Both the position numbers and the translations under genes were made by a program. 64,000 bases of DNA. It comes from Eledone cirrhosa. Taxonomy: Eukaryota. The DNA is taken from NCBI GenBank assembly GCA_964016885.1, contig OZ024744.1:72726001-72790000 (forward strand). The letters are read 5' to 3'. The notes beneath the pieces are model-generated. The model did not search any database and had not been told where the DNA came from. It saw only the letters and a program-made list of their open reading frames with translations. Positions 1 through 62,500 of this stretch are shown here, piece after piece. Within the stretch, counting starts at the first letter, position 1. Every line of letters begins with the position of its first letter.

Positions 1-1330
1 TAAACCATGTTGAAGGAATATCTATATTAAAATATCAATAAAATTCTAGTTCAGTATATTATTTCTACTAATTACACAAAAGAAATTATTTATTTCATAC
101 CTTTCCACCCATCAATTTCATTAACCCAAGAATTCTTAGTATTTTATTTCCATATTAGATTGCTATGTCAAGGGGGCAGTTTATGTCTAAAACACTGCTT
201 GTTTTAACACCGCCATTATGTCCTTGGATGTCTTTAGCAGAATTGACACTATTATAAGCATGCCAACCAGATTTTGAATTCCTTCCTTAATCAGACGTTT
301 TCTTCTGCAGACATTGACCTACAGATGTTGCATCTGAGTATCAACTGCATGAATCTCATCAGTCTAGTAATGCTTGCAGAATTTATGGTCATCACTGTCT
401 TTCCATTCCCTTATCCACTGGTTAAACCTAAAATGAAACATGCTTTGTTAACATTCATTGTTCTACTGGTATTTTAGTCATTAAATTATTTAAAAGTTTG
501 TAGTTAGAGTTTTAACAAAAAATCTCTGAAATTTATTCATCTCATAATATTTTTTAAACAACATTTATTGCAACCTTTCACGTAATATCTTTAACAGAAG
601 ATAAAAATATAAATGGAAAAAAAAATGAGCAAACCAATAAAAATATAAGCATTTTAATTTAAGATTTAAAATTTCATATTAAATGTTTCCTTTATGCATC
701 CATACCCAACATGTATGTTTTTAAATTCATAATCATAAATAAGGTACCAGTGAATTTTAAATGAGCTTTTGGGTTGAAGAAAACAGCTACAGATGATAAT
801 TATTAATAATATTTTTTTGATAAATTATGCTATTACTTTCTGCTGTGTCATTGCTACCAAACCATAAGAAGGTCAAACTGCATGCATGTAATCAGTTGAA
901 TCTTTTTAATTTATATTTCCGCCCTCTTATTATTTTGTTTCCCCTTTTTTTATTTAATATTCGCAGTTATGTGTATTCGATTTAGAATAAGTACACTGTA
1001 TCCCCACATATCATAAAGGGGGACTAAAACATTGGTACCAGCAAGGACATCCAATCATAAACATTGATTAAAAAAATTGAAAAACGATAATGGAGCCTGC
1101 AAGACTTACTCATACTTTAGCTGGAATATGGTCTTAAAAAGCTTGTTATAAGATTATAAGAATCTGTGTGTATGTGTGTATTTGCATGTACACATGCATG
1201 CACACATACCTCTGTGTATCCAGTTATGAACATGTACACTGTATCTATGTATATTGTAACAGCTGATTAAAAGAGGTTGATACCAGGAATGGCATCTGTC
1301 TGTAAAAGATTGTTCCGAAAGGGCCCTATG

Positions 1331-3304
1331 CTGTCATGAGGCTTGCAATGGAGGCCTGCCATGGCACTTGCAATGGAGACCTGTCATGGCACTTGCAATG
1401 GAGACCTGTCATAGGGCTTGCAATGGAGGTCTGCCGTGGCACTTGCAATGGAGGCCTGTCATGGCACTTGCAATGGAGACCTGTCATGGGGCTTGCAATG
1501 GAGTCCTGCCGTGGCACTTGCAATGGAGTCCTGCCGTGGCACTTGCAATGGAGGTCTGCCATGGCACTTGCAATGGAGGCCTGTCATGGCACTTGCAACG
1601 GAGGCCTGTCATGGCACTTGCAATGGAGACCTGTCATGGGGCTTGCAATGGAGACCTGTCATGGGGCTTGCAATGGAGGCCTGTCATGGGGCTTGCAATG
1701 GAGGCTTGTCATGGGGCTTGCAATGTAAGCCTGTCATGGTGCTTGCAATGGAGGCCTGTCATGGTGCTTGCAATGGAGACCTGTCATGGGGCTTGCAATG
1801 GAGTCCTGTCATGGCACTTGCAACGGAGGCCTGTCATGGCACTTGCAATGGAGACCTGTCATGGGGCTTGCAATGGAGGTCTGCCGTGGCACTTGCAATG
1901 GAGGCCTGTCATGGCACTTGCAATGAAGACCTGTCATGGGGCTTGCAATGGAGGTCTGCCGTGGCACTTGCAATGGAGGCCTGTCATGGCACTTGCAATG
2001 GAGACCTGTCATGGGGCTTGCAATGGAGGTCTGCCGTGGCACTTGCAACGGAGGCCTGTCATGGCACTTGCAATGGAGACCTGTCATGGGGCTTGCAATG
2101 GAGGTCTGCCGTGGCACTTGCAATGGAGGCCTGTCATGGCACTTGCAATGGAGACCTGTCATGGGGCTTGCAATGGAGGCCTGTCATGGGGCTTGCAATG
2201 GAGGCTTGTCATGGGGCTTGCAATGTAAGCCTGTCATGGTGCTTGCAATGGAGGCCTGTCATGGCACTTGCAATGGAGGCCTGTCATGGCACTTGCAACG
2301 GAGGCCTGTCATGGCACTTGCAATGGAGGCCTGTCATGGCACTTGCAACGGAGGCCTGTCATGGCACTTGCAATGGAGACCTGTCATGGGGCTTGCAATG
2401 GAGACCTGTCATGGGGCTTGCAATGGAGGCCTGTCATGGGGCTTGCAATGTAAGCCTGTCATGGGGCTTGCAATGTAAGCCTGTCATGGTGCTTGCAATG
2501 GAGGCTTGTCATGGGGCTTGCAATGTAAGCCTGCCATGGGGCTTGCAATGTAGGCCTGCCATGGCACTTGCAATGGAGACCTGTCATGGCGCTTGGAATG
2601 GAGGCTTGTCATGGGGCTTGCAATGGAGGCCTGTCATGGCGCTTGCAATGGAGGCCTGTCATGGCGCTTGCAATGTAGGCCTGCCATGGCACTTGCAATG
2701 TAGGCCTGTCATGGGGTTTGCAATGGAGGCCTGTCATGGCGCTTGGAATGGAGGCCTGTCATGGCGCTTGGAATGGAGGCCTGTCATGGGGTTTGCAATG
2801 GAGACCTGTCATGGGGCTTGCAATGGAGGCCTGTCATGGCGCTTGGAATGGAGGCCTGTCATGGGGTTTGCAATGGAGGCCTGTCATGGGGCTTGCAATG
2901 AAGGCCTGTAATGGTGCTTGCAATGGAGGCCTGTCATGGGGTTTGCAATGTAGGCCTGCCATGGCACTTGCAATGTAGGCCTGTCATGGGGCTTGCAATG
3001 TAGGCCTGTCATGGGGCTTGCAATGTAGGCCTGTCATGGCGCTTGGAATGGAGGCTTGTCATGGGGCTTGCAATGTAGGCCTATCATGGAGCTTGCAATA
3101 GAGGCCTGTCATGGGGTTTGCAATGTAGGCCTGCCATGGCACTTGCAATGGAGACCTGTCATGGGGCTTGCAATGTAGGCCTGTCATGGCACTTGGAATG
3201 GAGGCTTGTCATGGGGCTTGCAATGGAGGCCTGTCATGGTGCTTGCAATGTAGGCTTGCCATGGGGCTTGCAATGGAGGCCTGTCATGGCACTTGCAATG
3301 GAGG
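1331..3304. repeat. 25-bp minisatellite, about 79 copies, consensus CTGTCATGG(GG/CA)CTTGCAATGGAGGC
   Basis: CTTGCAATG recurs with a 25-nt period (1342, 1367, ...). The overlapping Cys/Trp-rich ORFs are translations of the repeat. Confidence 0.97.
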
Positions 3305-3596: not shown

Positions 3597-3912
3597 AAAG
3601 AGCAAATAACTAGATACATAAATGATGTATTATTTTAAAGAATACAATTTATAATAGTAAGAAAAACAATGAGAAAGGAAGAAGTAGTTGAATGAAGAGG
3701 AGGTAAATTCTACACTCATGGCTGGATGGTGTATCTTAGCTGTGCCTTGCAGACAACTGCAAGGCACAGCTAAGATACACCATCCAGCCATGAGTGTAGA
3801 ATTTACCTCATCTTCATTCAACTACTTCTTCCTTTCTCATTGTTTTTCTTACTATTATAAATTGTATTCTTTAAAATAATACATCCTTTATGTATCTAGT
3901 TATTTGCTCTTT
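3597..3912. repeat. Near-perfect palindrome: 156-bp arms, 4-nt loop (ACAA)
   Basis: 3597-3752 is the reverse complement of 3757-3912 with very few mismatches; the ORF track shows mirror-image ORFs on both strands. Confidence 0.95.
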
Positions 3913-4956: not shown

Positions 4957-5406
4957 GAAATAATATAGTTATTATATCTTTGCAATAATTACTTAATAAT
5001 TATTAAATGTATTGTTTCTCAAAATTTAAGATGTCATATTTGCATCACCACCCCGCATGCTCATAGCCCCCCCCCCCTCATACCTACACACACACCAATC
5101 ATTGTGGTGCATCTGTTTTTCCATCCTTGCAAGAGTTAGATGAGTCTTTTCCAGGACAGTGACCCTCCACTTGTTGCAGTCCTTTGTCATCCATCTCTTC
5201 TTTGAGTTTCAGTGATTTGGGATCAGTTCTTGCAACATCAGCCCGGGTCTTCCTTCTTCAGCTTCTTTATACTGGGAACTTTTACCATTTCTTCATCCAG
5301 CAGTCATTCTCTCCTGCACACTACGTGCAAATTAGACTGCTCAGCCGTTAATATGCATAAGGAAAGTATATACTTTCAGACGTTCAACCATCTGGCAGGA
5401 AGGTAT

Positions 5407-5449
5407 ACGATGCTGACGATAGCTAATAAGCTTGAAACTAGTACATCGT
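5407..5449 (+). ncRNA. Minimal type I hammerhead ribozyme (canonical core)
   Basis: ACGATG-CTGACGA-t-AGCT-aata-AGCT-t-GAAAC-TA-GTA/CATCGT: 6-bp stem I, 4-bp stem II, palindromic ACTAGT stem III, GUA cleavage triplet. Confidence 0.85.
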
Positions 5450-18127: not shown

Positions 18128-18731
18128 TATATATAAAGGTGCTGCTGGGGCAAAGGATGATAGATAAGACAACAAAATAATAGGGGTTTTTACCCAATAT
18201 ATTTCATCATGATATTTTGAGGTTAGAACTTTCTTTTCAAAGAAAGTTCTAACCTTGAAATATCACAATTAAATATATTATGTAAAAAAAACAAAAAAAA
18301 AACATTATTTTATTTTGGTTTATCATCCTTTAACCCAACATATATATATATTTCTATCACATTGTACAAGCTTTCTGAAGTTCTCATCAATTATTTATAA
18401 AATGTTTTCTCAATTGATTAGTATAATAAATAATTATATAAACCAATTAAAGATTTATCATGGAAGGTACAGTCACAGGATATCTCAGGATCAGTTCTCA
18501 GTAAACATTTCTCTTTCAGAAATTATGATGTTATCAGAGAAGAATAACCCCTTAAATGCGATGAGATATGTTGTAATTTGTACTTAAGGTGTTAACTGCT
18601 AAAATGTTTATTATAAATGACATATATATATATATAGTGGTAGAACACTGGAAGGTAATATCCTTAGTGGTAGAGCACTCAGTCCATGGGACGAGTTAGG
18701 TAGAAGTGGTTACACAACAGTTAGTTCACCA

Positions 18732-18773
18732 TACGAGAACAATTGTTTCACCTTAGCGGATCCTCAGCTCGTA
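18732..18773 (-). ncRNA. Minimal hammerhead ribozyme in pLTR
   Basis: TACGAG-CTGAGGA-tCCgctaaGGt-GAAAC-AATT-GTT/CTCGTA; perfect 6-bp stem I and palindromic CAATTG. Confidence 0.85.
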
Positions 18774-18920
18774 ATGTACATGGTTATACAAAACAGGAAG
18801 GACAACCATACGAATGCGCATGCGCAGAAACGATCACTTCACACAGGCAATACTAAATTGCGTGCGAGAGATGTAAGGGAGATAACTGCGAAAGTCCAAA
18901 AGTTAGGATGTTGTTGTAAT

Positions 18921-19358
18921 TCAATCCGGAGTTTTGTAGTTATGTAAGAGGTGTTTCCAGACGTGTGGACAATGTGTGAAGAATCCATTTCTCGTGTTTA
19001 GGCAATCACTATTGCGTAATCTCTTTAAAATATTTATTCGTTCATCAATACATAGTCCACACGACGGATTGCCCCTTGCGTATGGCTTGGACTTAGTGAT
19101 GGCTTTCCATTGAATGGAGTAGTTTATACTTGAGTCCTTGAGGAACCGTATGTGGATCACGAGTTTCATGGATGAACGTCTGTCTGGGTAACTAAAGGTC
19201 GACTGGTGGTTCAGGAAACGTTCCTTAAATCGGCCCTCAGCCATACCCACATAGGATTTGACCTCCTGTGGTTGATTTGGTCGATTGGAAGTGACCACAA
19301 CTTCATAAACTACAGCAGTTGTGTTGCATTGCTGTTGAAGCGGACAATCTTCGGGCAT
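18921..19358 (-). pseudogene. GIY-YIG endonuclease domain of a Penelope-like element (5'-truncated)
   Basis: CPL...C....VVY...YVG...FKERF.NH..F, W..I....PY....C.LC..E...I...LN.RN..F..CPH: typical PLE endonuclease C-terminus. Confidence 0.85.
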
Positions 19359-19616
19359 ACAGCAAGAGAACCCTAAACATGAGAAATTAATTCTTCACAC
19401 GTCCACACATCTGGAAACACCTGTTACATAACTACAAAGCTCCGGATTGAATTACAACAACATCCTAATTTTCTTATCAACTAGAAACTTTCGGACTTTC
19501 ACAGTTATCTCCCTTACACCTCTCGCACGCAATTTAGTATTGCCTGTGTGAAGTGACTGTTTCTGCGCATGCGCGTTCGTACGGTTGTCCTTCCTGTTCC
19601 GTATAACCATGTCCAT

Positions 19617-19659
19617 TACAAGCTGAGGATCCGCTAAGGTGAAACAATTGTTCTCGGTA
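19617..19659 (+). ncRNA. Minimal hammerhead ribozyme, inverted pLTR copy
   Basis: TACAAG-CTGAGGA-tCCgctaaGGt-GAAAC-AATT-GTT/CTCGGTA; stem I weakened. Confidence 0.75.
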
Positions 19660-19704
19660 TGGTGAACTAACTGTTGTGTAACCACTTCTCTCTCTCTCTC
19701 TCTC

Positions 19705-23335: not shown

Positions 23336-23390
23336 TAAATATATATATACATGAGAATGTGTGAAATCCTTGATACAGTTAGGTATATTT

Positions 23391-23543
23391 TAAAAAAGGA
23401 AAAGAATGACTTCACTTGTAGTTCTAAACAATTTAATTTAATTTTATAATATAATTTTACAAGCCAAATTGTAAAATTATAATATTATAAAATTAAATTA
23501 ACTTGTTTAGAACTACAAGTGAAGTCATTCTTTTCTTTTTTTA
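23391..23543. repeat. AT-rich fold-back with ~70-bp arms
   Basis: GAAAAGAATGACTTCACTTGTAGTTCTAAACAA versus TTGTTTAGAACTACAAGTGAAGTCATTCTTTTC. Confidence 0.88.
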
Positions 23544-24063
23544 ATATATATAAATATATATATATATATATAATAATATATGATAATAATGAGCTGCGCG
23601 TTGCAAATGGGGTACATATGAAAAAGTAAGTCCTTCATCAGTGACCCTCCAACCGTCCCAGGCATTTCATCGCTTTAAGGGCCATATACCTCAGGTTGGT
23701 GCGAACAACGGCTAAAAAAAGTCGTTGGGACACGTAAATAAAGGGGACGTAGGGTGAACAAACAAAATGGTTTAAGCAACGGAAAGTGAGAAGAAAGAGA
23801 CAAGTCCCAGATTTCTATGAATATAAACTCAGTGAAATCGTGAACAAGAGACAAAAGACCATCAAACCTGGTTGAAATGTGAGCAAGGAAGGAATTTCGC
23901 ACAGGTCTAACGGGGGGAAGAAGAAGGGGTCTGGTCTACGAATTCGGTAAACATAAGTTCTGTGAAGTCGCAGACGAGAGTAATAATTATGATAATAAAA
24001 AGCAGCAATTCTTTGCTTAAACTTTAATCTGTTATTTTAATAAATATATATATATATATATTT

Positions 24064-24998
24064 ATTTATTAAAATAACAGATTAAAGTTTAAGCAAAGAA
24101 TCGCTGCTTTTACCCTTAACGGGATCTTCTGAAACTAACAGTCAATCTGTAAACGCAGAAGTGAATATTTCAAAAAACGTTGCAACCGGAGGAAGACAGG
24201 AAGACGATACTTTGGTTCGTGGAAACGTTCCCTGGCAAAGAACGGGAAAAAACGAATATAATACGTCATTATTTGGAGCGGTGAAAAACAATTACACGCA
24301 AAGACAGAATCACGTTTATGGTATAAAAGTAGTCGTAGACTAATGTTCTCTTAGGTGGTTCATAGAGATGTTCTCTGGCAATGAACGGAAAAAACGAAGA
24401 TAATACGTCATATGTGGAGCGTGGAGAATAATTGCACGCAAAGACAAAACCACGTAAATGGTATAACTGTAGTCGTAGACTAAAATTCTAACTAGGAAAC
24501 CGAACGATGCTCCGCTTCAGAGTTAAGAATAAAGTAAATAAAATACAGAGGTAATTGAAATTAAATAAATACATACACACATCCAAATACGTACATACAC
24601 AAGCATACGCGAAAACACTCGCCATAGGTATACAAATACACGCACATATGACGTATTATTTTCGTTTTTTCCGTTCATTGCCAGAGAACGTCTCTATGAA
24701 CCACCTAAGAGAACATTAGTCTACGACCTCTTTTATACCATAAACGTCGTTTTGTCTTTGCGCGTAATTGTTTTTCACCGCTCCTATTAATGACGTATCA
24801 TATTCGTTTTTTCCCGTTTTTTGCCAGTGAATGTTTCCATGAACCAAAGTATCGTCTTCCTGTCTTCCTCCGGTTGCAACGTTTTTTGAAATATCCACTT
24901 CTGCGTTTACAGATTGACTTTGTTAGTTTCAGAAGATCCCGTTAAGGGTGAAAGCAGCGATTCTTTGCTTAAACTTTAATCTGTTATTTTAATAAATA
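24064..24998. mobile_element. Large fold-back element (arms 24064-24416 and 24643-24998), Penelope-like pLTR derivative
   Basis: About 350-bp inverted arms, each ending in HHR + AATAAA; internal ~140-bp tandem duplication; a third terminal copy at 23998-24046. Confidence 0.8.
24909..24984 (+). ncRNA. Hammerhead ribozyme with variant core CAGAAGA (U4A)
   Basis: ACAGATTGA..AGTTT-CAGAAGA-tCCCgttaaGGGt-GAAA-GCA-(9 nt)-TGC-TT/AAACT-TTAATCTGT: all three stems pair, and stem I extends 5+9 bp past a bulge. The minus copy (24077-24150) has AAAA for GAAA. Confidence 0.75.
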
Positions 24999-25967
24999 TT
25001 TGCTCTACGGTTCTTATATATTTGATATATATTTATCCTTATCGAGCCCTCTTTGGATTTTAGTCTTCATATTTATTATTATTACTATATATATATATAT
25101 ATATAAACTAATGTGTACAATTATAATATCATGTTGCAGCATTAAAAGAACACTTATAGCCTACAGCAGCCCCAAATGTACTGCCCCCATAAAAGTGTTA
25201 CCCAGGGCGGACCAACCCCCTTGCCGCCCTCTAGATATGCTACTGAGCCATATCACACAACTGACAACATACACCATTGTTTTGGGAGCATCCTGGATAA
25301 AATGCCAAAATCTGCATTCACCATTATGAGATGGTGTTGATGTCCCTCTTGATTATGACATTTCCAAACTATAAATACTGGTAATGTTTCCCATCTGTTG
25401 CCAGTAGTGATAGACATTAGCTGAGAGAGTGAGAGAGAGGGTGGAGGAAGGGAGAGATAGTAGTGAACAAGTCTGGTATATTATCCATAAAGTTGGAAGG
25501 AGAGACTATCCACACCATGCAATTTGTCCATGACACAACCACTCATTACTAACAATATTTCAACTCCTGTTATTGTTCTCTTTTCTTTTGGTACACTACT
25601 TTTTCTACTGAGAGCTGTGTGATAGTGTTGAGCTAGTTACTAATGTTTACTGTCCTTAAACATTTAGAAAATTGCATACATGTGTCTGAAATTGAATAGT
25701 ACATGCATATTGTGGTCCATCAAAATCTTAAAATTCCAGTCCTTCACAAGCACTATTGAGTGGGTGTCCCCCAAAATGACTCTAGGCACCCCAAGAAGTC
25801 CAGCCACCCTGTCTCTGTCAGGGTATAAATAGCTGTTAATCTGAAGGCACTGGCTTTGCTGTTGTTCATGCTCTTGGACTATTAATTTAGCTTCTGGGTC
25901 CAGGAATCATTGAAGAATCAAGAATCATTAATAATTGTTTCTACTTAATCATTAATAATTGTTTCTT

Positions 25968-27623: not shown

Positions 27624-27993
27624 TTTGAAAACCAAACAATACATTAGAAAGGAAATTAAATTGCTAAGATAACAAAAGAATCTTACCTTAGCAAATTTAA
27701 TGATCCCAAATATTTTGGGCTTTAAAAACCCATTATCAAGGGCGTATCCCTAGGAGAGACTTAAAGGATCATTCGGAGTTGACTTGTTTGGAAGGCAGAT
27801 TTTTAAAAAAACTTAAATTTGGCTTATAAACAAGTCAACTCCAATCGATCCTTTAAGTCTCTCCTAGATATACTCCCTTGATAATGGGTTTTTAAACCCG
27901 AAAATATTTGGGATCATTAAATTTGCTAAGGTAAGATTCTTTTGTTATCTTAGCAATTTAATTTTCTTTCTAATGCATTGTTTGGTTTTCAAA
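27624..27993. mobile_element. Fold-back element (arms 27624-27789 and 27828-27993) containing an HHR
   Basis: About 165-bp inverted arms ending at (TA)n. Confidence 0.85.
27874..27913 (+). ncRNA. Minimal hammerhead with U3-A8 variant core
   Basis: TCCC-TTGATAA-t-GGGTTT-tt-AAACCC-GAAA-A-TA-T-TT/GGGA; palindromic AATATT stem III. Confidence 0.7.
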
Positions 27994-29869: not shown

Positions 29870-32800
29870 ATGATTTCATTTATTGGCCACAAGGGCCGAT
29901 ATGTAGTGTACAATACAAAGACAGGGACAGTGGGGGTTTACAATAAGGTCGAGTAAAAGTGCACAATGGCAAGACTAATTTAACAATGAAGATATAAAAA
30001 ATATAAAATAAATTACCCACTAGGGGGGGTGGATGACCCAGTGACTCAGGTACCCCACAAAACCTGAACCACCCAGCGCTTCTAGGGCACCCGTTGAGAG
30101 CATCCCTCTCCTCTTCAAATTAGCCAACCTGTAGGCGCATGGTCAGAGTAGGCCCATTCACACAGGCCATTCACACCACATTCATCCACCTTTTAACAAA
30201 TGTACCTTTTAGCAAATGCACTTCTTTCTCCACCCTCACCTTCCTTTCCAGGTGAAACTTGAAGAAGTTGATGAGGGATTGGCCGAAGAGAAAAGTGTCT
30301 GTTTTCATTTCATTCAATCTGGTTCACCATATAACCTCTTTCGCAACGGCCACCAGACAGAGGAAAAAGAGGAAAATTGCCTGCTCTTCCTGACCTAAGG
30401 AAGGCGGCGGGTCGATCTTCACTATGGACTCGGCCTATAGCCGGATCCATTCTACACGCGACAACAGTTGTTCGACATAACTCCACAAGTAATGCACGGA
30501 CATTGGACAAGTGCATGCAGAACGGTTTCGTCGCTCTGTATGCATATCGGGCAGGTCCGTCTGGCAATACTTCCGTGCCTGTAACGTTTATCCCAAACCG
30601 GCAGTGCCCTCCGGTAGCACTGCCAAGCGAGGGATTTCTGGAAGTTATCCATCGTCCCCAGCTCGAAAGTCCTCCGGAACAGACTGGTTAGTTCGACTTC
30701 GTCGACGGCCAGAGCCTCTCCGAGTGCGTCATCGCATTTGCCCACCACTAATCCTCTATAGAACTTGAGAGTGGAAGTTCCATTGATCGCATTGCCTGCT
30801 TGGGCAATGCGGGCAGTGAGTGCCTGGCAACATTCCAGGTGCTAGTCACCCAGTCTCGGTCTCTTCTTGACCCAGGACTGCATCTCAGTCAAAGAAATGA
30901 GCTGCGCAAAGGCCCGTCTGATAAACGGCGACCACAAATATCTGGAGATGTCGCAGCCTCAATGCATGTCTGTGCATTATTAGCCACGGCATGCCCAGCC
31001 CTCCGCGTAGAGGGTGCTGACAACAGATAGACTGCCTCAGCAAAGGGATTTGTCCTCTCCACAAGAAGTTGAAGAGGAGCTGTTCTAATTTGGCGAGGTG
31101 CAGACGGGGGGCAAGGCACGACGGTCAGAGAGTAGTAGATGACGGACGTGATGTACGCATTTGCCACCTCCATCCGACCTTTCAGTGATAGCTTTCTGCA
31201 GCCCATTTTTGGGTTAGACTGGCTACCCTGCTTGTTAACTCATCCCATTCTTTTCTACCTGGAGGTATAGTCAGAACCAAACCCTGAACAACTTTACCCG
31301 TTCGTCCATCCAGCGCCCCACGGCAATGTTGGACGGCATGGACTTGCCTTTCCAGGTGCCGAGCTGCAAACGCAACAACTTTTCTGGGTTAAGTTTTGCT
31401 CCTGTCAACCTTTCATATTCCTTCAATAAGGTGCCAACCACCTCAGTGTCCAACACCATCACGGTGATGTCGTCCGCATAAGCCGACACAGCCTTTCTGC
31501 ATCCCGGTTCGAGCGGGATGCCCTGCAAGAACTCCAGCTTCTGCAGTAAGGGTTGGAGAGTCAATATGTACAGAAGGGAGGAGAGAGGGCACTCTTGACG
31601 GACCGATCGAGACTCGAAACGGTTCCGAGAGGTGGCCATTAACCTTGCCCACCGAGCAGATGCCGCTGTGCATTGCACCGATCCAGCTTCTGAAGACAGG
31701 GCTGGAGCCAGCTGCTTTGAGGACAGCCTCCAGGTACCGATGTCGACCCTATCAAATGCTTTCGATTGATCTAAATTGATCACCGCATGAGGTGGAGGTT
31801 ATCGTGTATGGACTTGGCTGGTATTGAGCAAGTTTGCACCTCCACAACCAAATCCTCGACAACAAGCGCCAACCTCTTTGCTAACACCTTGGCCAAAATC
31901 TTAAACTCTGTGTTGAGCAGTTATGGGCCTGAAGTTGTCTAATGTATCCCTCTTGTTCTCGTCTTTGCTTATCAGTGTCAGCTCTCTCCTGCTCACAGAA
32001 CTGGGAATACTCCCATTGTTACCAGTTGCAGTAGAGCGCTTCGAGGAGATCGGAGAACAAGTCTGACATATTTACGTTAAGCTCGTAGGGCAGACCATCC
32101 AAATCAGGTGACTTGCACCTTGTGCAACTGACAAGGGCATCCTGAATTTCGGCTGAAGTAATCGGTCTTTCGCAGCGTTCAGCATCGACCGTCGAGATGT
32201 GTGGCAAGCCGTCAAGGTAGGGACTGAAGTCCGCCACCGTCTCTGACCCGCCACTCTCCCCGAACAACCAAGCAAAGTGCTGGCAAAAGGCCTCACAGAT
32301 CTGCTTGGAATCGCTTAGCTCGTGTCCGTCTCGGTCTGTCAAAGACCAAATTATGGTTTTATTACCACACTGTGCCTTCGCCACACAGGCCCATAAACAG
32401 CTTTGGTTCCCTCATTTCTTAGAGCACACAACTTAGCTCTGACAATGTAACCTTTGTGTTTCGCTTTGAAGAAATGATCTAATGCCGTTCTTGCAGCTAG
32501 CGCGTCAGTTGTAATGCCACTACAAATAGCATCATCTAACTTATCTACCAACTCCTCCTCCTTTCTATTTTTCTCTAACGCTACTTCTTTGCTAAACCCT
32601 ATGGAAGTTACTCTAATCTCTCTTTTGAGAGACTCCCCCCACCATTTGTTGTTGATGATCCCCCCTGTCAACTTTTGCTTAACAAAATTGTTGACTCGGT
32701 CCCTGTAAGCCTTATGTGCCAGAAATGACATGTTCAGCTTCCTGTAACCAGGTCCCAACCTACGTGTTTTATCTAGGTCAACTATACAGATCACAAATTT

Positions 32801-35070
32801 GTGATCTAAAAAGGCGACCGTTTTAAAACGTGGGCAGCCTACACTATTTCTATCTATTTTCCTAATGAAGATCCTGTCTATATAAGATCTAGATGACCCT
32901 ATGCGGTTGGTCCACCTCCACATTGGTGCATTGGGGAAATCTAGTCAGTACCTGTCAGACAGTTGGAGCTGGCTGATCAGGTGCTTGAGGCTTTTGCATC
33001 CCCTGCTCCTATCAGCTACTTCCACACAATCGCAGTGTGTATCTAAGATGCCGTTCCAGTCCCCCGCTAACAGTAAAGGGTGAGACGTACCCAGAAAGGC
33101 TGCCAGGCGTCTAAAGAAATCCAGTTGTCTGGCCCTGGTAGGGGTGTAGACGGCTAGCAGTCTAAAGGCACCATCTTCGCTATTGTTCACATCCAGGACC
33201 ACCAACTTACCGTCCGGGTCCCAGAAGATCGACCTTACCTTGAGATCCAGGCCTTTCCTAAACAGCACTGCCACCCCACCTCCCATTCCTGGCCTGCTAA
33301 CAGATGCGAAGATCTGATAATCGTCGAAAATAAGGGCTAGTGCGCGCGTGTGTCACAAATCCTGGTCTCGCTGATGGCATTCACATCCATTTCCAGGTTG
33401 TTGAGCAGGTTACCCTGCTTCCAGGGTGATCTCAGACCACGAACATTTAAACTTCCCACATTTGATATGGCCATGTTGGCAAGCTAAAAGAGAGAGGGAA
33501 GGTTTACTTATGTCCCAGGGTATTGTGAAGGTCGGGTGGTTCGACATCCATGGTTGGTGGGGTTTCTTTTGGGAACCCTTTTAAAAGTCTCGATGTGGGT
33601 TTCACGTTCGGGTTTCCCACGTCCTGAGGATAGCTCTCTCGAATTTCTTTGGAGGAACCGAGTCACATTCGTACCAGGAACAAATCTTCTGGCATGCAAA
33701 ATATGCCCAATTAAAAGACCCTCCCATCCCCCTCTCTGTTTGAATGTCCTTGCTTCCTGCTAAGAGGGCTATCAATTTCCCATTGGCCCTTCTGACACAC
33801 ACAAAATTTTTAATTTTTTGTTGGTGTGGTTTTATTTGTTTTCGTTTCAGTGACTGTGCTGATGTTTTTGTTGGTGTTGTTTCGAGTATGCCCGTGTTTG
33901 TTGTAGGTGTGGTGTCTGCAATTTCAGGTGTCTGTGTGTTTAATTGTTCTTGTGTTTCTTTAGGTTTTTTTCCGGTTAGGGGGTTGTGAAGGTGGTGTCG
34001 ATGTTGATGTTATTTGGGAAGTGTTTGCGTTGGTGGTATCTCTATTTTTTGTTTTTGATGTTTTTGTGTTTTGTGGGGGCTTTATTTTGTGAGTTTTCTC
34101 TTTTGCTTTGTGGCACTTTTGGGTTTTACTTCATCTTCACTACTGGAAGACAAAGGGTCTGTGCTTAATAGCAAGGGCCTCGATTTTGAACCGTACCGAG
34201 ATGGTACCGAACTGCTTGGCCAATGCACTTTAAAGTAGCCTCGACCTCTGCCTGGCTGGCGAGTTCCACTTTACATGTCTGCACTGAAATGCATCGAAAG
34301 TACACCGTCCTCCTTTACATGGTTGCTATTGCCTCGTCCGGGATGGTTAGATTGGCCCAGGACTTCCCGCATTTAATTAACCTCCACGCCTGGGCCAACT
34401 GTTGTTCCTTATCACTGATACCTATGTTAAAAAAGTACCGTGTTTTGGCTGCTGCTCGTACAAATGTGGCGCTTCCATTGAGCTTGTTGTTGCTCTCATT
34501 GTTATTCTTGTTGTTGGTGTTGTCGTTCTTGCTGTTGTTGTTGTTCTTGTTGTTTTGTTTGCTCTTGCTACCATTATTAGTGTTTATATTGAGGCTGTTG
34601 GTATTATTGTCGTTGCTTTTCTTGGTTGTTGTTGTGGTGGTGGTAGTGGTGGTGCTGAGGTCGGTTGGAGGTGATACAGTGTTGTTAACCGCTGCCTTGT
34701 TTTGTGTTTTGTTTTTACATTCAGGAGAGTGGACCACAGACATGTCGGTGGTAGTAATAGTAGTAGTAGTGGAAGCTGTAGTGGCTGTTTATGACCTTTT
34801 GACCTGTATATTGTTTAATGTTTCAAGGTGGAAATTTTCCATATTTTTGGGGGTAACGATTTTTTCGAAGTTTTTTTTAAAATAAATCGGAATATTTGGG
34901 TTTAAAGCCCGAATATTGAGAGGTCTCTTCTCCTTGGAACCAAGGTGGTTACCTTATGCTACGTTATCGAAAAGAAAATACACAAAACGATACTTTAAAA
35001 CAGCTTAAAATTACGAACCTTTTCTCCTGCAGACTTGTAATGTTTTCACACATGTGCGTCCATAATAATT
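29870..35070 (-). mobile_element. Tx1/L1-clade LINE, near full length and decayed (ORF1 ~34.2-34.9 kb; ORF2 from 33474)
   Basis: ORF2 begins MAISNVGSLNVRGL. APE motifs GGGVAVLF, LAGDWN, SYIDRIF, DHK; RT motifs [36 protein letters not shown]; AATAAA at the 3' end. Many frameshifts; 5' boundary approximate. Confidence 0.88.
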
Positions 35071-39249: not shown

Positions 39250-40012
<763 letters not shown>

Positions 40013-42830
40013 ACGGCTTCAATGGAGGCCATGGGGTTGGCACAAGAAATGAAGGATTCAGACTTCTAGAATTCTGCGACGCCAATGACATGTCGATATG
40101 TAACACAAACTTCAAAAAACCCGACAACCACCTGATCACCTATAGATCAGGGGAGCATTCTAGTCAGATAGATTTTATCCTCATCAGAGGACGTGACAGA
40201 AGGACGGTCATAAACACAAAAGCCTTCCCTAGTGAGGAATGTACATCCCAACATAGCTTAGTTGTCAGCGACCTCATAGTCAGAACTAGACGAACCTGGA
40301 AACAGAGGCCAACCTGGAGAAGAAAGATCTGGAAGCTGAAAGACCCCTCAGCCAGTAACAGATTTAAAGATATTTTACTCAACGCCTACGATAGTAAAGA
40401 AGAACAGATAGAGACATTCAATGTAGAAGAGCACTGGGAGTTCCTAAAATATAACTTACTAGAGGCGACAGATGAGGTCTGTGGCTGGAGTAAGACCACA
40501 AGCAGGAGGAGAGTGACTTGGTGGTGGAACAATAAGGTAGATGAAGCAGTTAAGGCCAAGAGACAGGAATGGAAGAATGGGGGGAGCAGGGTACATTACA
40601 TAGAGACCAAGAGGGAAGCTAGGCGACAAGTATACTTAGCTAGGAGGCAAGCAGAGGATAGAAAATTCAAGCATGTTTTGCAACGTGAGGACCAGAAACA
40701 GGAGGTGTTCAAGATTGCGAGGCAGTGTGTCAGAGAAAATTGTGATATCATTGGAGAGAAGTGTATCCGGAATGATTAAGGTGAGCTTGACCTTACAAGT
40801 GCTGAGAAGAAAGATGCATGGAAGAGTCATTATGATAGATTACTAAATGAGGAGAATGCATGGGAAGAAGAGACCCTACCTCAAGTAGACCCTATAGAGG
40901 GGCCAGCAGTACAAGTCAGCAGCAGCGTAGTAAGTAAGGCAATCAAAGATATGAAGATGGGGAAGGCAACCGGTCCATCGGGTATAGCTGCCGAGATGCT
41001 GAAGGCATCCGAGTCTGTAGGTCACACTATAACCACACGTATTGTTAACCAGGTAATACTAGAAGGTGTCATATCAAAAGATTGGTGCAGTAGCATCATT
41101 GTCAACTGCTACAAAGGTAAAGGTGATGCACTCGATGGAGGAAACTATAGAGGTATAAAGCTGATGGACCAGGTCATGAAAGTAACAGAAAGAGTTATAA
41201 CACAGTTGATTAGGGACCGGGTGAAACTAGATGAGATGCAATTTGGGTTTGTACCTGGAAGAGGCACCACTGATGCCCTCTTCCTTGTCAGGCAGTTACA
41301 GGAAAAGTACCTAGCTAAAAGTAAGCCACTCTACCTGGCATTCGTCGATTTTGAGAAAGCCTTTGACAGAGTTCCACATGCTGTAATCTGGTGGGCTCTT
41401 AAAAAACTACGATTAGATGAATGGCTTGTGAAAGCGGTACAAGCCATGTATAGGGGAGCAGTCAGCAAAGTTAGGATTAGCAATGAGTATAGCGAGGAAT
41501 TTAGTGTACAGGTCGGGGTCCACCAGGGCTCTGTTCTTAGCCCCCTCCTGTTCATCATAGTCCTGCAGGCAATAACGGAGGAGTTTAAGACTGGATGCCC
41601 ATGGGAACTCCTGTATGCTGATGACCTCGCACTTATAGCTGAATCTATGGTAGAACTAGAGAAGAAATTCCAAACTTGGAAGCAGGGACTAGAAAGAAAG
41701 GGTCTCAAAGTCCACAGGACAAAGACTAAGTGCCTTGTAAGTAGACGAGAAGACAGAACCCAGATCCCCTCAGGGAAATGGCCTTGCTCAGTATGTAGGA
41801 AAGGTGTAGGTAGGAACTCCATTCTCTGCCCCAAATGCAAACAATGGGTACACAAGAGATGTAGCGGGATCTCAGGAAGCTTAATTAAGAATGTAGGCTT
41901 CACATTCAGCAGCTGTGCTGGGACAGCAAGCAGCAAACAGCCACAGGAAACAAGTACCACCAATCTCTGGGAGGGCTCTGTAGAAACAGTAGACAGCTTC
42001 TGCTACCTAGGTGACCGAATTAGCAGCGGAGGTGGGTGTTCAGAAAGTACAATAACTAGGGTAAGAACGGGATGGAAGAAGTTTAGGGAACTACTACCAC
42101 TGCTAGCTGCAAAAGGCTTCTCCCTCAAAATGAAAGGCAGACTGTATGATGCGTGTATCCGAACAACGCTGAAGGTGGAAGACTTACGTAGATTAGAGAG
42201 AAACGAAGCCTGCATGCTCCGATGGATGTGTAATAGTAATATACGCGAACGACAAAGCATAAATGAATTGAGAGAGAGACTGAGCATAAGCGGAATCAAA
42301 TGCTGTGTGCAGGAGAGGCGGTTGCGTTGGTATGGACATGTGATGCGTATGAAGGATGACAGCTGCATAAAAAGGTGCAGAGCACTAGAAGTCGGTGGAA
42401 ACCGCGGAGTGGGGAGACCCAAGATGACCTGGGATGATCTTACCCAATTCCACCTCTCAAAGGCGATGACACACGACCGTGACCTCTGACGTCACACAGT
42501 AATACAGAGTACCCGACCTCCCATGAGTACAAGCTGAAGCATATAGACAATATGCCCCCACACACCCCACTGCGAGGTGGTCGTGGAGGTGCCACGGCAA
42601 AAAAGCACCCAGCCCACACTGTAAAGTGGACGTGTAGGCGCCCGAAAAAGCACCCAGCACTCACTGTAAATGAGGTTGGTGTTAGGAAGGGCATCCTGCT
42701 GTAGAAATCAAGCTAAATCAGTTCCTGTATGAGCAAGGCATGGTCTGCCGACCAGACACCGCACACAGCAGGACAACCCGTCTAACCCATGCTAGCATGG
42801 AAGAATGGACGTAAAACGGTGATGATGATT
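40013..42830 (+). mobile_element. RTE LINE, 5'-truncated (partial APE, RT, 3'UTR), stop at 40777
   Basis: SQIDFIL, NYRGIKL, QFGFVPGRGTTDA, FVDFEKAFDRV, GVHQGSVLSPLLF, LYADDL, CSVC..CPKC..WVHKRC, RLRWYGHVMR. Confidence 0.95.
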
Positions 42831-45255: not shown

Positions 45256-45484
45256 ATACATTGCGTTATAAACTCGAAATAGCTCAAAGAAGGGAATATT
45301 TCCGAGACGTGTAATACAAATGAATATATGAGGGATGAACACTGATACAAATACACATGTTCCAATTGCAAATGACCAAGTTAGCTAGATTGATAAATAC
45401 TAATTTAAAATAATATGGTTTGCCTGTCTCGATTTAAAGTAATAAATCAATAAAAATAACAAACCTATATTTGGCAATGGCCGT

Positions 45485-45565
45485 GATACCCGGACAAATT
45501 CTAAATTTGTTTCACAACAATTATTAAGTGAAAGTAATTATTCCTGTGCTCTTCTGCGGAGTATC
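45485..45565 (-). ncRNA. Hammerhead ribozyme with variant core CAGAAGA (U4A)
   Basis: GATAC-t-CCG-CAGAAGA-(stem II AC..AATAATT/AATTGTT..GT)-GAA-ACAAAT-ttaga-ATTTGT-C/CGG-GTATC; GUC triplet. Confidence 0.72.
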
Positions 45566-45915
45566 CAGAAAATCATCATCATCACTGTTTTACGTCCGTT
45601 CTTCCACGCTAGCATGGGTTAGACAGGTTGTCCTCTTGTGCGTAGCCGGTCGGCCGACCATGCCTTGCTCATACGGGAACTGATTCTGGTTTGATTTCTA
45701 CATTTCTGGATGCCCTTCCTAACACCAACCTCATTTACAGTGAGTGCTGGGTGCTTTTTTTCTGTGGCGCCTACACGTTATATATATATATTTATATATA
45801 TATTTATTTACGTATAGCACGGAGCATTTGTGCATTAATGCTCAATGTACAAGAACAGAGCCGTTATATGTAAAAGAAACCAAAGAACGCCTACATACTC
45901 AAACAGTTTTTATTT

Positions 45916-50693: not shown

Positions 50694-50711
50694 TATGTGT
50701 GTGTGTGTGTG

Positions 50712-50895
50712 TGGCTTCTACAGGACTAGAACTGTTTCATTCAAAGGAAATCATGGCTTTCCTGATGACTTCCTTTGAATGAAACAGTTCTAATCCTATA
50801 GAAGCCATTTCTATATTAAATTTTATATACACTCTACTAATGTATTGAGTACCTTACTGACTGTGGTTATTCCCAATTGAACTCGGGACTCACAT
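50712..50895 (+). mobile_element. ~185-bp HHR fold-back micro-element, copy 2
   Basis: HHR at 50753-50808: ATGGC-t-TTC-CTGATGA-cTTCctttGAAt-GAAA-CAG-ttctaatc-CT(A)-TA/GAAGCCAT; antisense arm at 50712-50754. Confidence 0.78.
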
Positions 50896-55276: not shown

Positions 55277-56505
55277 AACTTTGAATAACTTTGAAATGTT
55301 TTGGCCAGTATTGGCCCAGGCCATGTCTAACTTAATAGCACCACCTGGCGAAGTCTTTCAATTCAGGATTTGGGCACCATGGCCCATTCGAGAAGAGAAT
55401 TACTGTTTGCGGAGACATATCCGGGTGTGGGTGGTTTGTCCGGGATTACTTGGAGGAATTTGTCCAAAGACTTCTTGAATTTTGTGTGGTCAGTTTCTGT
55501 TTTGACGTGTCCTGGTGTGATGTTGAAGAGAGCAGGGCCGATTGAGGTGAAATAATTGTGCCGTATTGTTGTTATGAGTTGCGATTTAGATTTTTGAATG
55601 GGACGGATAGCACGGGGCCCAAGCCTTGGGTGTATCTTGAAGGCGATGCCAACATCATTTGGGCAGTGATGATGGAACATTTTCCACATCATGCAGATAA
55701 TATAACGCTCACGGCGACGTTGGAGTGAGTAAAGTTTCAGGTTTTCCAATCGACCCCAGTAGTCAAGGTCTGACATGCCATCTATCTTTTTCGTGATTGC
55801 CCTTTGAGGAGCTTCAAGTTTCATGATACTTTGTTTCGTGTGGGGAGACCACAGTGGACAACAGTATTCAAGGTGTGGTCGGGCGAAAGTAGAGAAGAGA
55901 AGGATAATGGTGCGGGAATCTCTCGACTGGAAGGTTCTGAGGATCCAGGAACACATTCTGCGGGCCATGTCAACTTTGCTGCTTATATGCGTGGTCCAGC
56001 TTATGTTGCTGTCCACGGTTACTCCCAAGTCTCTGATGTTGTTTGATGCCACGAGAGTTTCCCCGGAGGGAAGGGAGTACGGGAGTTTCAGAGCATCCTC
56101 TTTTCCAAAGTGGATCAGTTCGAATTTGTCTTCGTTCAGTAACATGTTGTTCTTTTCTGCCCATTGGGTAACAGCCAGTAGGTCTGACTGAAGGCTTATC
56201 CGGTCATCCACGCCATTGATGACCTTTTGGAGCTTGGAATCATCAGCGAAAATTTTAATGTTGCTGTGTTTGATGATGTCAGTGATGTCATTAATATAGA
56301 TGATGAAGAGAAGTGGGCCCAACACAGTGCCTTGTGGGACTCCACTACTGACTTTGGCTGGGCTTGATTTGACTCCCTCAACTACAACATGTTGGGTTCT
56401 GTTTGACAGGAAGCTCTTGATCCACTGCAGCAGCTTTCCAGTGACACCAATATTGGACAGCTTTCTCAGTAGAATGTTATGATCAACCCTGTCAAAGGCC
56501 TTGCT
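55277..56505 (-). mobile_element. CR1-group LINE, 5'-truncated, uninterrupted RT frame
   Basis: [13 protein letters not shown]...G..G.LL.WI..FLSNR.Q.V, SGVPQGTVLGPLLFIIYIND, IFADDSKL, DLGV, RPHLEYC..LWSP, SLQRRR; open to the stop at 55363. Confidence 0.92.
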
Positions 56506-58333
56506 GTATCTATATATATGTATGTATCTATATATATGTATGTATCTATATATGTATGTATCTATATATATATGTATGTATGTTATATATGTATGTATAT
56601 ATATATATGTATGTATATATATATATGTATGTATATATATATATGTATGTATATATATATATTATATATATGTATATATATATGTATATATATATGTATG
56701 TATATATATATATTATATATATGTATATATATACGTATATATATATGTTATATATATGTATATATATATATGTATGTATCTATATATATGTATGTATCTA
56801 TATATATGTATGTATCTATATATATGTATGTATCTATATATATATGTATCTATATATATATATGTATCTATATATATATATGTATGTATGTTATATATGT
56901 ATGTTATATATGTATGTATGTTATATATGTATATATATATATGTATGTATGTTATATATGTATGTTATATATGTATGTATATATATATATGTATGTATAT
57001 ATATATATGTATGTATGTTATATATGTATGTTATATATGTATGTATGTTATATATGTATATATATGTATGTATATATATATATGTATGTATATATATATA
57101 TGTATGTATGTTATATATGTATGTATGTTATATATGTATATATATATATGTATGTTATATATGTATGTATGTTATATATGTATATATATATATGTATGTA
57201 TATATATATATATGTATGTATATATATATATGTATGTATGTTATATATGTATGTATATATATATGTATGTATATATATATATATGTATGTATATATATAT
57301 GTATGTATATATATATATATATATACCAAGAAACTCACTCAGATGGTGGATGGGTGCTACACGAGAATGCTGAGGATGGCTCTGAACATTAATCAGTATA
57401 CACTGAGGATGAAAAACTCAGAGCTGTATGGGAGCATCCCAAAAGTCAGCTCAAAAGTGACACAGAGGAGACTGAGGTTGGCTGGACATGCTCACCGACA
57501 TCCAGAGTTGACATTGCACTCAGTACTCCTTTGGGAGCCCCTACATGGACACACTAGAAGAGGAAAACCAAGGTTAACGTATGTTGATGCCCTAAGGACA
57601 GACACTGGTCTGTTGGAGATGCAGGATATGGCAGCGATAATGAGGGACAGAGACCGCTGGAGAGAACTCGTCCATAGATCTCGGGAATTTTACTCGCCTT
57701 AGATAGATAGATAGATGTATGTATATATATGTATGTATGTTATATATATATATGTATGTATATATATATATGTATGTATATATATATATGTATGTATATA
57801 TATATATATGTATGTACGTTATATATATATGTACGTTATATATATATGTATGTATATATGTATGTATATATATATATGTATGTATATATGTATGTATATA
57901 TATATATGTATGTATATATATATGTATATATATATGTATATATGTATGTATATATATATATGTATGTATATATATATGTATATATATATGTATATATGTA
58001 TGTATATATATATGTATATATATATGTATGTATGTATATATATATGTATGTATGTATATATATATGTATATATATATGTATGTATGTATATATATATGTA
58101 TATATATATGTATGTATATATATATGTATATATGTATATATGTATGTATATATATATGTATGTATGTATGTATATATATATATGTATATATGTATGTATG
58201 TATATATATATATGTATGTATGTATATATATATGTATATATATATGTATGTATGTATATATATGTATATATATATGTATGTATGTATATATATATGTATA
58301 TATGTATGTATGTATATATGTATGTATGTATGT

Positions 58334-59310: not shown

Positions 59311-59532
59311 GTATATATATATATGTATGTGTATGTATGTATGTATATATATATATATAAATGTATGTATGTATATAGATATGTATGTATGTATATATAT
59401 ATGTATGTATATATATATGTATGTATATAAATGTATGTATGTATATATATATGTATGTATATATATATGTATGTATGTATATATATATGTATGTATGTAT
59501 ATATATATATATGTATGTATATATATATATAT

Positions 59533-62500
59533 AGGTGGAGGGGTGGGTCTGCTAGATTCATTGAGGGTAAAAAACGATGTTATAAGCTTTTCTGGGTGGG
59601 AAACGACGATGGGCTGGGTGGAGTAGGAATCATGGTAGCAGAAAAGTGGGCAGATAAGATAATAGACGTAAATAGAGTGAACGACAGAATAATTAAAATA
59701 AGACTTGTCCTCAATAAAACTACGGTGACAGTAATATCTGCGTACGCACACCAATCCGGACTGCCCGGCACTATAAAAGACAGATTCTATGAGACACTGT
59801 TGCTAACTACCTCCCAAATATCTGACAGTGACTATATAATTATTGCAGGCGACCTAAATGGTCACGTTGGACAACATTGTGACGGCTACGACGAAATCCA
59901 TGGAGGCTATGGGTTTGGTACTAGAAATGAGGAAGGCTCCAGAATCCTGGAATTCTGTGATGCAAATAACCTAACTATCTGTAACACTAACTTCAAAAAA
60001 CGTGACAATCACCTGATCACCTATAGATCAGGGGAACACACAAGCCAGGTAGATTATATCCTTACCAGAAGACGTGACAGAGTGTCTGTTGTAAACACTA
60101 AATCCCTCCCCCATGAAGAATGCACCTCCCAACATAGACTGATAATTAGCGACCTCATAGTCAGGACGAGACGTACTCGACAGCAGAAGAGGACTATCCT
60201 CAGGAGGAAAATATGGAAACTAAAGGACCCCACAGCCAGAAATAAATTTCAAAGCATATTACTTGATGCTTTCGACAGTAAGGAAGAGCATCTAGAATCG
60301 GACAATATAGAGGGACAGTGGGAATTTCTGAAAGCAAACCTGCTGTTGGCGACAGACGAAGTCTGTGGCTGGAGCAGACCTGTAGGCAGGAGGAGAGTAA
60401 CTTGGTGGTGGAACAGTAGGGTGGAGGGGTCAATTAAGGCCAAAAAGCAGGCTTGGAAAGTATGGCGGGATGGGGGAAGTAGAGTAGACTATCAAGTGGC
60501 CAGGAGGGAAGCTAGGAGAGAAGTGTACTTAGCAAGAAGGGAAGCTGAGGAAAGAAAGTTCAAGCATGTTCTACAACGCGATGACCAAAAACGTGAGGTG
60601 TTCAGGATTGCCAGGCAATGCGTCAAGGAAAACCGTGATATTGTCGGGGAGAAGTGTGTACTTAACGATGATGGCATACTTGCCATCACCGACACTGATA
60701 AGAAGGTAGCTTGGCAGTGTCACTATGAAAGGCTACTAAATGAGGAGAATAAATGGGAGAAAGACAGTCTCCCCCATATCGACCCGATAGAGGGACCAGC
60801 AGTGTTAGTCGAGGGGAGTATAATAAGTAAGGCAATCAAGGATATGAAGACGGGTAAGGCGGCTGGGCCTTCGGAAATAGTTGCTGAGATGCTGAAGGCA
60901 TCTGGCACGGTGGGACACACCATGGTCACCCGCATAGTTAACCAAGTCGTACAGAATGGGGTTGTTCCGAAGGACTGGCATAGCAGCATCATCGTTAACT
61001 GTTATAAGGGTAAAGGAGACGCCCTAGATAGGAGTAACTATAGAGGCATTAAATTAATCGACCAGGTCATGAAGGTCACGGAAAAAGTAATAGCGCAACT
61101 AATCAGAGAGAGAATTGACCTAGATGAAATGCAGTTCGGGTTTGTGTCAGGCAAAAGCACCACAGACGCCCTTTTCATAGTACGACAACTACAGGAGAAG
61201 TACCTAGCTAAAGGTAGACCCCTCTACTTAGCTTTTGTCGACCTGGAGAAAGCCTTCGACAGAGTCCCCCGCTCCATTATCTGGTGGGCTCTTAGAAAAC
61301 TAGGCGTTGACGAATGGCTTGTGAGGGCTATACAAGCCATGTATAAAGAAACAGTCAGCAAGCTTAGAATTAACAACGAATATAGTGAAGAGTTTAGCGT
61401 AAAAGTTGGCGTCCATCAGGGCTCTGTTCTCAGCCCCCTACTATTTATTATTGCCCTTCAGGCTATAACAGAGGAGTTCAAGACAGGCTGCCCATGGGAA
61501 CTCCTATACGCAGACGACCTGACACTCATAGCGGAATCAATGGCCGAGCTAGAGAAGAAATTCCAAACATGGAAGCACGGCCTAGAGTCAAAAGGACTTA
61601 AAATTAACCTGGCTAAGACCAAAGTTCTAGTTTGTAGGAAAGAAAACAAGGCGGCGGTCCCTTCTGGGAAATGGTCGTGCTCGGTGTGTAGGAAAGGCGT
61701 AGGTAGAAACTCCATTTTATGTCCTAAATGCAAAGTATGGGTGCATAAAAGATGTAGTGGGATCACAGGTAAGCTAACTAAGAACATAGATTTTACATAT
61801 TGGCCGGTGTTCTGGTGCAATAAGTAGCAGCAAGTGCCCACAAAATACTAGCTCTTTCAATTGCGCAGAGGGTTCTATAGAAATAGTGGACAGCTTCCGT
61901 TACCTGGGCGATAAAATCAGCAGTGGGGGAGGGTGCTCTGAAAGAACTGTAGCTAGATTCAGAACTGGTTGGAAAAAGTTCAGAGAGCTTATACCACTAT
62001 TAGCTGCTAAAGGGTTCTCCCTAAAAATGAAAGGCAGGTTGTACGATGCCTGCATACGAACAGCAATGTTGCATGGTAGTGAGACCTGGGCATTGTGTGC
62101 AGAGGATATACGCAGACTAGAGAGGAACGAAGCTTGCATGCTCCGCTGGATGTGTAACAGTAATATACGTGAACGGCAAAGCATAAACGAACTAAGGAAA
62201 AAATTAGAGATAAGAGGGATCAGATGTTGTTTACTCGAGAGAAGGCTGCGTTGGTATGGACACGTGATGCGCATGAAAGTCGATAGCTGTATAACAAAGT
62301 GCAGGGCAATAAAGATAGACGGTAGCCACGGAATAGGCAGACCTAGAAAAACATGGGATGAGCTGATAAACTCCGACCTCACACACTTACACCTCTCCAA
62401 GACAATGTCACTGGACCGAGACCTTTGGCGGTACTCAGTAACAGAGAAGACCCGCCTTGCCAGTAGGCATCTCTAACAAAATACACCCCGTCCCGCCACC

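Follow-up and report, generated by a model that had tools for sequence, protein, structure and literature searches.

The 64,000-nucleotide stretch of Eledone cirrhosa DNA analyzed here (the window) contains, near 24 kb, a repeat present as two inverted copies, each with a type I hammerhead motif whose three stems pair and whose core has A rather than U at position 4. The same A4 is found across the repeat family, which is young and very abundant, and one of the two copies has in addition a G12A change. Judged from the sequence, A4 is likely a new natural core variant of the hammerhead. The explanation favored here, with moderate confidence, is that the locus consists of truncated Penelope-like 3' ends arranged head-to-head and that the family-wide A4 hammerhead would be a slowed self-cutting RNA in the source elements. 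There it would trim the element transcript 28 bases before the end of the repeat, and A4 is predicted to slow cleavage while leaving a residual activity. Hammerhead searches treat U4 as invariant, and mutants of the turn to which it belongs cut poorly. Should A4 prove able to cut, the consensus of the core will have to be broadened, and the number of genomic ribozymes is being underestimated by current descriptors. Should it be dead, a Penelope-type repeat carrying a non-functional hammerhead has reached thousands of copies, a finding that would bear on whether elements of this type need self-cleavage at all.

The motif of the right-hand copy extends from 24909 to 24984 on the plus strand and matches the hammerhead descriptor. 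Stem I is formed by 24909-24917 with 24976-24984 and by 24925-24929 with 24971-24975, the two segments being separated by a bulge at 24918-24924. The core at 24930-24936 reads CAGAAGA, which places A4 at 24931, and is followed by stem II (24937-24949), G12 (24950), and stem III (24953-24957/24965-24969). The triplet is CUU with U17 at 24970, and the predicted cut falls after 24970. Stem I thus consists of 5 bp, a bulge, and 9 bp, with one G.U pair, and the bulge measures 7 nt in the right arm and 5 nt in the left. In both arms stem II is CCC/GGG, three C-G pairs resting on a U.U pair, whereas stem III contains four Watson-Crick pairs and one G.U pair. All of the stems described in the original prediction (stem I of 5 bp, bulge, and 9 bp; CCC/GGG flanked by T..T; stem III of 4 bp) do pair, the last with one additional G.U, and the CAGAAGA core and CUU triplet were read, as claimed, in both inverted copies.

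Residues C3, G5, A6, G8, and A9 are present in both arms, and three helices surround the core with the open end at stem I, as in a type I hammerhead. The right arm further displays G12, A13, A14, the A15.1-U16.1 pair, and an H17 residue (24950-24953, 24969, and U17 at 24970). There are two departures from the consensus. Positions 10.1 and 11.1 are occupied by U.U instead of a pair, which is a known natural and tolerated exception (PMC3088659; PMC8557442; PMC7229834), and position 4 is A in both arms and in the family. Because U4 is absent, the motif is classed as a variant rather than as a consensus member. The bulge of stem I and the five-base loop II are in place and may supply the parts for a candidate tertiary contact.

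The second motif lies at 24077-24150 on the minus strand with A4 at 24130. G12 is the general base of the hammerhead, and in this copy the position is occupied by A at 24111; the motif is predicted to be inactive. A G12A substitution slowed a full-length hammerhead about a million-fold (PMC2553840). Given this near-lethal change in the left copy, only the right copy could cut. The contention that the hammerhead is kept in both arms thus stands for shape and core, but the left arm is not intact. Moreover, the two arms belong to one insertion and share their letters by descent, and their agreement was for that reason rejected as independent support for A4.

Next to the left copy and tail-to-tail with it across a TA repeat is a 50-bp stub of the 3' end (23998-24047, plus strand), which runs from about position 12 onward and matches 24951-24999 at 98%. 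Stub and left copy together form a 114-bp palindrome (23998-24111) across the TA repeat. The outer edge of this palindrome coincides exactly with the position of G12A; the A there could have been copied from the flank into the left copy by a template switch. Further upstream, at 23595-23995 and between AT-rich tracts, there is an insertion that is single-copy within the window and that contains CUGAUGA at 23640-23634 (minus strand) without a complete hammerhead fold.

The overall architecture of the locus is that of an inverted repeat with arms of 356 bp at 24063-24416 and 24643-24998, which are 94.7% identical with 19 differences. Its outer span is 936 bp, in keeping with the fold-back of 935 bp that had been described. 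The right arm (24643-24998, plus strand) is a 5'-truncated copy of the 3' end of the repeat, with the hammerhead motif near its own 3' end. The left copy (24063-24496, minus strand) has the same 3' end and is longer than the arm; family sequence continues at least to 24496, and loose ends of X5 and X7 contigs at 24716 match 24484-24496 on the minus strand. The two copies are therefore placed head-to-head with their 3' ends outward, and the arms are separated by a 226-bp spacer (24417-24642) in which six-frame translation, inspected by eye, revealed no frame resembling a reverse transcriptase or a GIY-YIG endonuclease. A tandem sub-repeat with a 140-bp unit in 1.9 copies (24213-24483) lies upstream of the hammerhead. 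Joints at which X1 and X5 contigs go back 130 positions, from 24772 to 24643, indicate that it is present in other copies as well. On the opposite side, a one-sided tail common to part of the family extends from 24999 on the plus strand and was followed to 25030: depth runs on to that position, and one X5 contig matches 24970-25030 with zero differences, whereas 145 contigs of X1 pass into TA repeats from 24999 on. The arms also differ at a linked pair of letters, 24785 and 24787. Since this pair is seen at 11% in X1, the arms may stem from different subfamily templates.

This anatomy makes it likely that the repeat represents the 3' end of a Penelope-like element. Such elements are characterized by 5' truncation, an inverted truncated copy on the 5' side, a one-sided tail of 30-40 bp, and TA targets (PMC8557442). 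The 24-kb locus has the inverted 5'-truncated copy at its 5' side, a hammerhead motif near the 3' end of the terminal repeat, and the one-sided tail (as far as 25030) together with a TA-repeat target. A trait of non-LTR retrozymes is missing, in that the 140-bp tandem unit contains no hammerhead. The assignment was drawn from anatomy because neither reading frame nor parent was found: the insertion holds no reverse transcriptase plus GIY-YIG frame of the 24-kb family, a pattern search for the parent element in a metagenome collection gave 11 loci, none of them a hammerhead or a family member, and the corresponding searches gave 0 in prokaryote genomes and 0 and 0 in viral contigs.

An internal control is provided by a head-to-head Penelope-like insertion at 18641-19689, which has the same layout as the 24-kb fold-back. 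It carries U4 hammerheads at 18767 (minus strand) and 19624 (plus strand), in each of which stem II rests on a U.U pair; stem I of the one at 19624 is weakened. Between them, at 18921-19394 on the minus strand, is a GIY-YIG-like frame that by eye resembles the Hydra-clade endonuclease rows and for which Pfam returned no match. Long inverted arms, TA flanks, and the lack of a reading frame would also be expected of a MITE or foldback element resembling a DNA transposon with long terminal inverted repeats, on which the hammerhead shape would be incidental. Such an element is very unlikely here, for contig depth rises toward the 3' end, the two copies are of unequal length, the 50-bp stub stands alone, and the tail is one-sided. 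The hammerhead motif, in addition, was unmatched in 200 shuffles of the window, and the Penelope-like neighbor shows the same layout.

The shuffles in question were block-wise and preserved dinucleotides, and they were scanned with a strict three-stem descriptor that was set after the motifs had been seen and that is too strict for minimal U4 motifs. In the window this descriptor finds two A4 matches, at 24930 (plus strand) and 45556 (minus strand); in the shuffles it finds 0, and no C4 or G4 motif in the window passes it. A scan of the window for blocks in permuted order gave only the 24930 motif at the thresholds used. The energetics are less distinctive. The hammerhead fold has a predicted energy of -13.0 kcal/mol, 2.1 kcal/mol above the best fold at -15.1 kcal/mol, the pair probabilities of proximal stem I are below 0.1, and the z-scores against shuffles are -0.6 and -1.1. 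No Rfam hammerhead was reported in 24850-25050 at E-values up to 10, and none in the whole window among the best 150 of 169 matches listed, where the U4 motifs of the window are likewise absent. A plain alignment of six motifs failed to align their cores.

To establish the family form of position 4, the public sequencing runs X1, X5, X7, and X21 were mapped to 24640-25030 at 80% likeness; 20 of 24 rows of the run search contain part of the stretch, and no RNA run is listed among them, an absence without bearing on expression. Position 4 was deduced from the tally of change types in the contigs rather than counted copy by copy, and the variants listed comprise 40 of 62 across the runs and 27 of 42 in X1. 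The X1 set contains 18,681 contigs, 5,683 of which are at least 99% alike to the reference, with 7,216 at 95-99%, 4,618 at 90-95%, and 1,164 under 90%. Toward the 3' end its depth climbs, starting from ∼1.4 million ahead of the motif and reaching 3.6 million over the 3' part of the motif. Summed contig depth, which is not itself a copy number, brackets the copy number loosely between ∼4,000 and 500,000. In X1 a single A-to-T place reaches 2% or more, and it is 24995 rather than 24931, so that U at position 4 accounts for less than 2% of the depth-weighted X1 contigs. Outside the variants listed, X1 has one A-to-G place and three G-to-A places, which could be positions 4 and 12; because the smallest listed share is 11%, they are probably rarer than that, if the list is ranked by share as it appears to be.

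The remaining runs are smaller. X5 gave six contigs in which all changes of A and G are accounted for and none is in the core; one of them equals 24923-24999 letter for letter, and another, with 38 differences in 220 letters (17% diverged), keeps A4. X7 gave 13 contigs with zero A-to-T places, and two A-to-C places outside those listed could include position 4. One diverged loose end in X7 reads CAGAAGA with a different loop II, and four X7 contigs that break off at 24938 agree with the family as far as two letters beyond CAGAAGA, after which they enter unrelated sequence. For X21, of which raw reads from about 1 in 100 of the run were used, 0 of 12.8 million reads mapped. The runs are filed under many organism labels. 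Horizontal transfer was considered as an explanation and was not adopted, given that four runs were mapped, that X5 and X7 contributed only 6 and 13 contigs, and that contamination is possible.

With U below 2% in X1, A4 is the family form of the repeat, as read from the contigs, and not a product of local decay. By this tally the condition that had been set for refutation, U4 in the family consensus, therefore does not hold, and A4 is not private to this locus. That A4 is a natural variant rather than decay holds at the level of sequence by virtue of the family contigs; the grounds originally given, namely its presence in two arms, do not carry it. A family with U4 and an A4 confined to the 24-kb locus is hardly credible. 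The right arm does have private letters at 24748, 24819, 24832, and 24840, where 96-99.8% of X1 has another letter, as local decay would predict, but A-to-T at 24931 never reaches 2% in X1, X5, or X7.

The distribution of common variants in X1 is weakly suggestive of constraint on the motif. Among the rows listed, variants at 10-90% occupy 14 of 266 positions upstream and 2 of 7 in the bulge, as compared to none of the 69 that make up the stems, loops, and core. With the 27 of 42 X1 rows used, the one-sided p value is 0.037, and it is 0.06 and 0.08 at two other thresholds. Under the explanation favored here, selection would maintain the fold in the source elements, as the avoidance of stems and core by these common variants suggests. 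Furthermore, in 56 X1 contigs the sequence upstream of a joint at 24925, bulge included, is a different one, and distal stem I can still pair in their consensus (by eye, agreement 0.48).

The main rival is that the motif is a fixed relic: U4A would have killed the ribozyme in one source copy, which was then amplified by Penelope proteins in trans, so that A4 would be family-wide by descent and functionless. We regard this as possible rather than probable. In a comprehensive mutant screen, activity was low for every single and double change in the CUGA turn apart from the C3-G8 swap (PMC9901934), and Naiad elements have spread without canonical hammerheads (PMC8557442). With most contigs at least 95% alike, a single founder could suffice to account for their uniformity, and the G12A change in the left arm would also be at home in a relic. 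These points must be weighed against the 17%-diverged contig and the diverged contig ends, all of which keep the core, against the common variants listed, which avoid the stems, and against a second, unrelated motif at 45556, which shows the identical substitution in an otherwise unaltered core.

Next in rank is the proposal that the fold is kept for a non-catalytic task, for example as a 3'-end signal for the reverse transcriptase of the element, A4 abolishing cutting while the shape stays. The fixed position of the motif 28 bases from the end of the repeat and its conserved stems are consistent with such a role. In addition, cleavage of Penelope hammerheads in vitro is poor, and other roles are left open in the work concerned (PMC4209133). 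Yet the catalytic G8 and G12 are retained by every X5 contig and by the X1 majority form, and a purely structural role would require neither. We consider this proposal improbable, and slowed cleavage in the source elements continues to be the preferred reading.

As for the individual copies at 24 kb, both are probably inert: no general base is present in the left one, and in any transcript reading through the fold-back the two 356-bp arms are predicted to pair into one duplex of about -620 kcal/mol that would sequester both motifs.

How unusual is A4? In the hammerhead structure U4 contacts the A6-N7 phosphate (PMC3088659), and A4 should accordingly cost speed. The natural variants described in the same article are U3-A8, A6C, insertions, U15.1-A16.1, and U10.1-U11.1, and it relates that core mutants in repeats were rejected by Perreault et al. 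(PMC3088659). In the table of Penelope hammerheads U4 occurs in all 34 rows, though these were found with a CUGANGA descriptor (PMC8557442). No report of a natural A4 hammerhead was encountered in the portion of the literature searched, and the variant is not named in the accessible portions of PMC10085705, PMC11014351, PMC6765202, PMC7229834, and PMC3907566. Four A4-type eight-letter probes hit 24 places in the accessible part of the PMC8557442 supplement, none of which is followed by a hammerhead fold (by eye), and six short probes taken from the A4 elements at 24 and 45 kb gave no matching consensus in the same material and one chance match. Among viral contigs, none of the 33 matches to an A4 pattern folds into a full hammerhead, as against 124 of 135 matches to the U4 pattern. 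The U4 figure comes from 4 of the 64 parts into which the collection is divided, ∼2,100 stretches being estimated for the whole, and the pattern requires a G10.1-C11.1 stem II.

The closest relatives of the 24-kb motif appear to be the Hydra-clade Penelope hammerheads (Craig et al. 2021, PMC8557442). They too are type I and located near the 3' end, have a short stem II often on U.U and commonly U17, and belong to elements with TA targets and an inverted truncated copy on the 5' side. Their stem III is mostly 3-4 bp with a loop of 1-3 bases and C15.2-G16.2, whereas that of the 24-kb motif has 5 bp, a seven-base loop, and G15.2-C16.2. The minimal hammerheads of metazoan Penelope elements (Cervera and De la Pena 2014, PMC4209133) are likewise found in the terminal repeat, singly or as opposite-strand pairs 100-700 bp apart, and likewise show core variants at the level of families. 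Their stem III, unlike that of the 24-kb motif, is minimal and dimer-dependent, and their U3-A8 variant is a compensated base pair, whereas A4 changes an unpaired residue of the turn with no evident partner. A natural change at position 4 is known from the viroid U4C hammerhead, which has reduced but sufficient activity in vivo (cited in PMC3088659). That change replaces a pyrimidine by a pyrimidine, whereas here a purine is, to judge from sequence, fixed in a genomic repeat family. Finally, the axolotl retrozyme HHR_Amex2 (PMC7229834) resembles the 24-kb motif in being type I with U.U at the base of helix II, and resembles the family in its very high copy number and absence of protein. Retrozymes, however, are arranged head-to-tail with one hammerhead per unit (PMC7229834), whereas the 24-kb copies are inverted and 5'-truncated.

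In the 3' ends of Naiad_Obim and Naiad_Ovul (PMC8557442, File S1), a cleavage block is followed by GAAA and then by CUGAUGA. By eye, these blocks have a perfect 6-bp stem I and a 5-bp stem III; a 6-bp helix ends just before GAAA, and its 5' strand does not adjoin CUGAUGA. They may represent a permuted hammerhead in a clade reported to be without canonical ones.

The second A4 motif of the window is located at 45484-45568 on the minus strand. Its core, CAGAAGA, spans 45556-45550, the triplet is GUC, and C17 is at 45493. Stem III is 7 bp long and stem I is bulged, whereas stem II needs either two additional bases or a G.U pair in order to close. No DNA similarity to the 24-kb family was detectable, and the prediction that the same substitution occurs in an unrelated element near 45485 is hence upheld. 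This motif could be a single decayed copy, the family-level check having covered the 24-kb repeat.

Both A4 motifs share A7 and have a stable stem III of 5-7 bp. In the U4 motifs at 5413, 18767, and 19624, stem III is short and palindromic; the first of these is a minimal hammerhead at 5405-5448 (plus strand) with a CUGACGA core, a stem II that rests on U.U, a palindromic stem III, and a GUA triplet. A minimal palindromic stem III works as a dimer (PMC4209133). A4 may therefore be an alternative brake on a motif otherwise able to cut as a monomer, which, with two families compared to two, is offered solely as a hypothesis. In a bolder and rather doubtful extension, CAGANGA would be a functional natural core that has become fixed, within a single animal genome, in two or more unrelated families of retroelements, where it would replace dimer dependence as the brake. 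If so, whole families of A4 ribozymes, perhaps including Penelope-like clades regarded as hammerhead-less, would have been missed, because published searches demand CUGANGA.

Several other features of the window were recorded. A tandem array of ∼77 copies of a 25-bp unit occupies 1207-3100. Decayed frames of non-LTR retrotransposons, four in number, are found at 30450-34790 (minus strand), 39600-42490 (plus strand), 55360-56660 (minus strand), and 59430-62480 (plus strand), and endonuclease and reverse transcriptase motifs can be recognized in them by eye. Near-perfect short palindromes unrelated to the hammerhead family are present at 3717-3792, 18192-18283, 23384-23550, 27754-27864, and 50711-50808, and the Rfam microRNA matches at these five palindromes lie far below the gathering scores.
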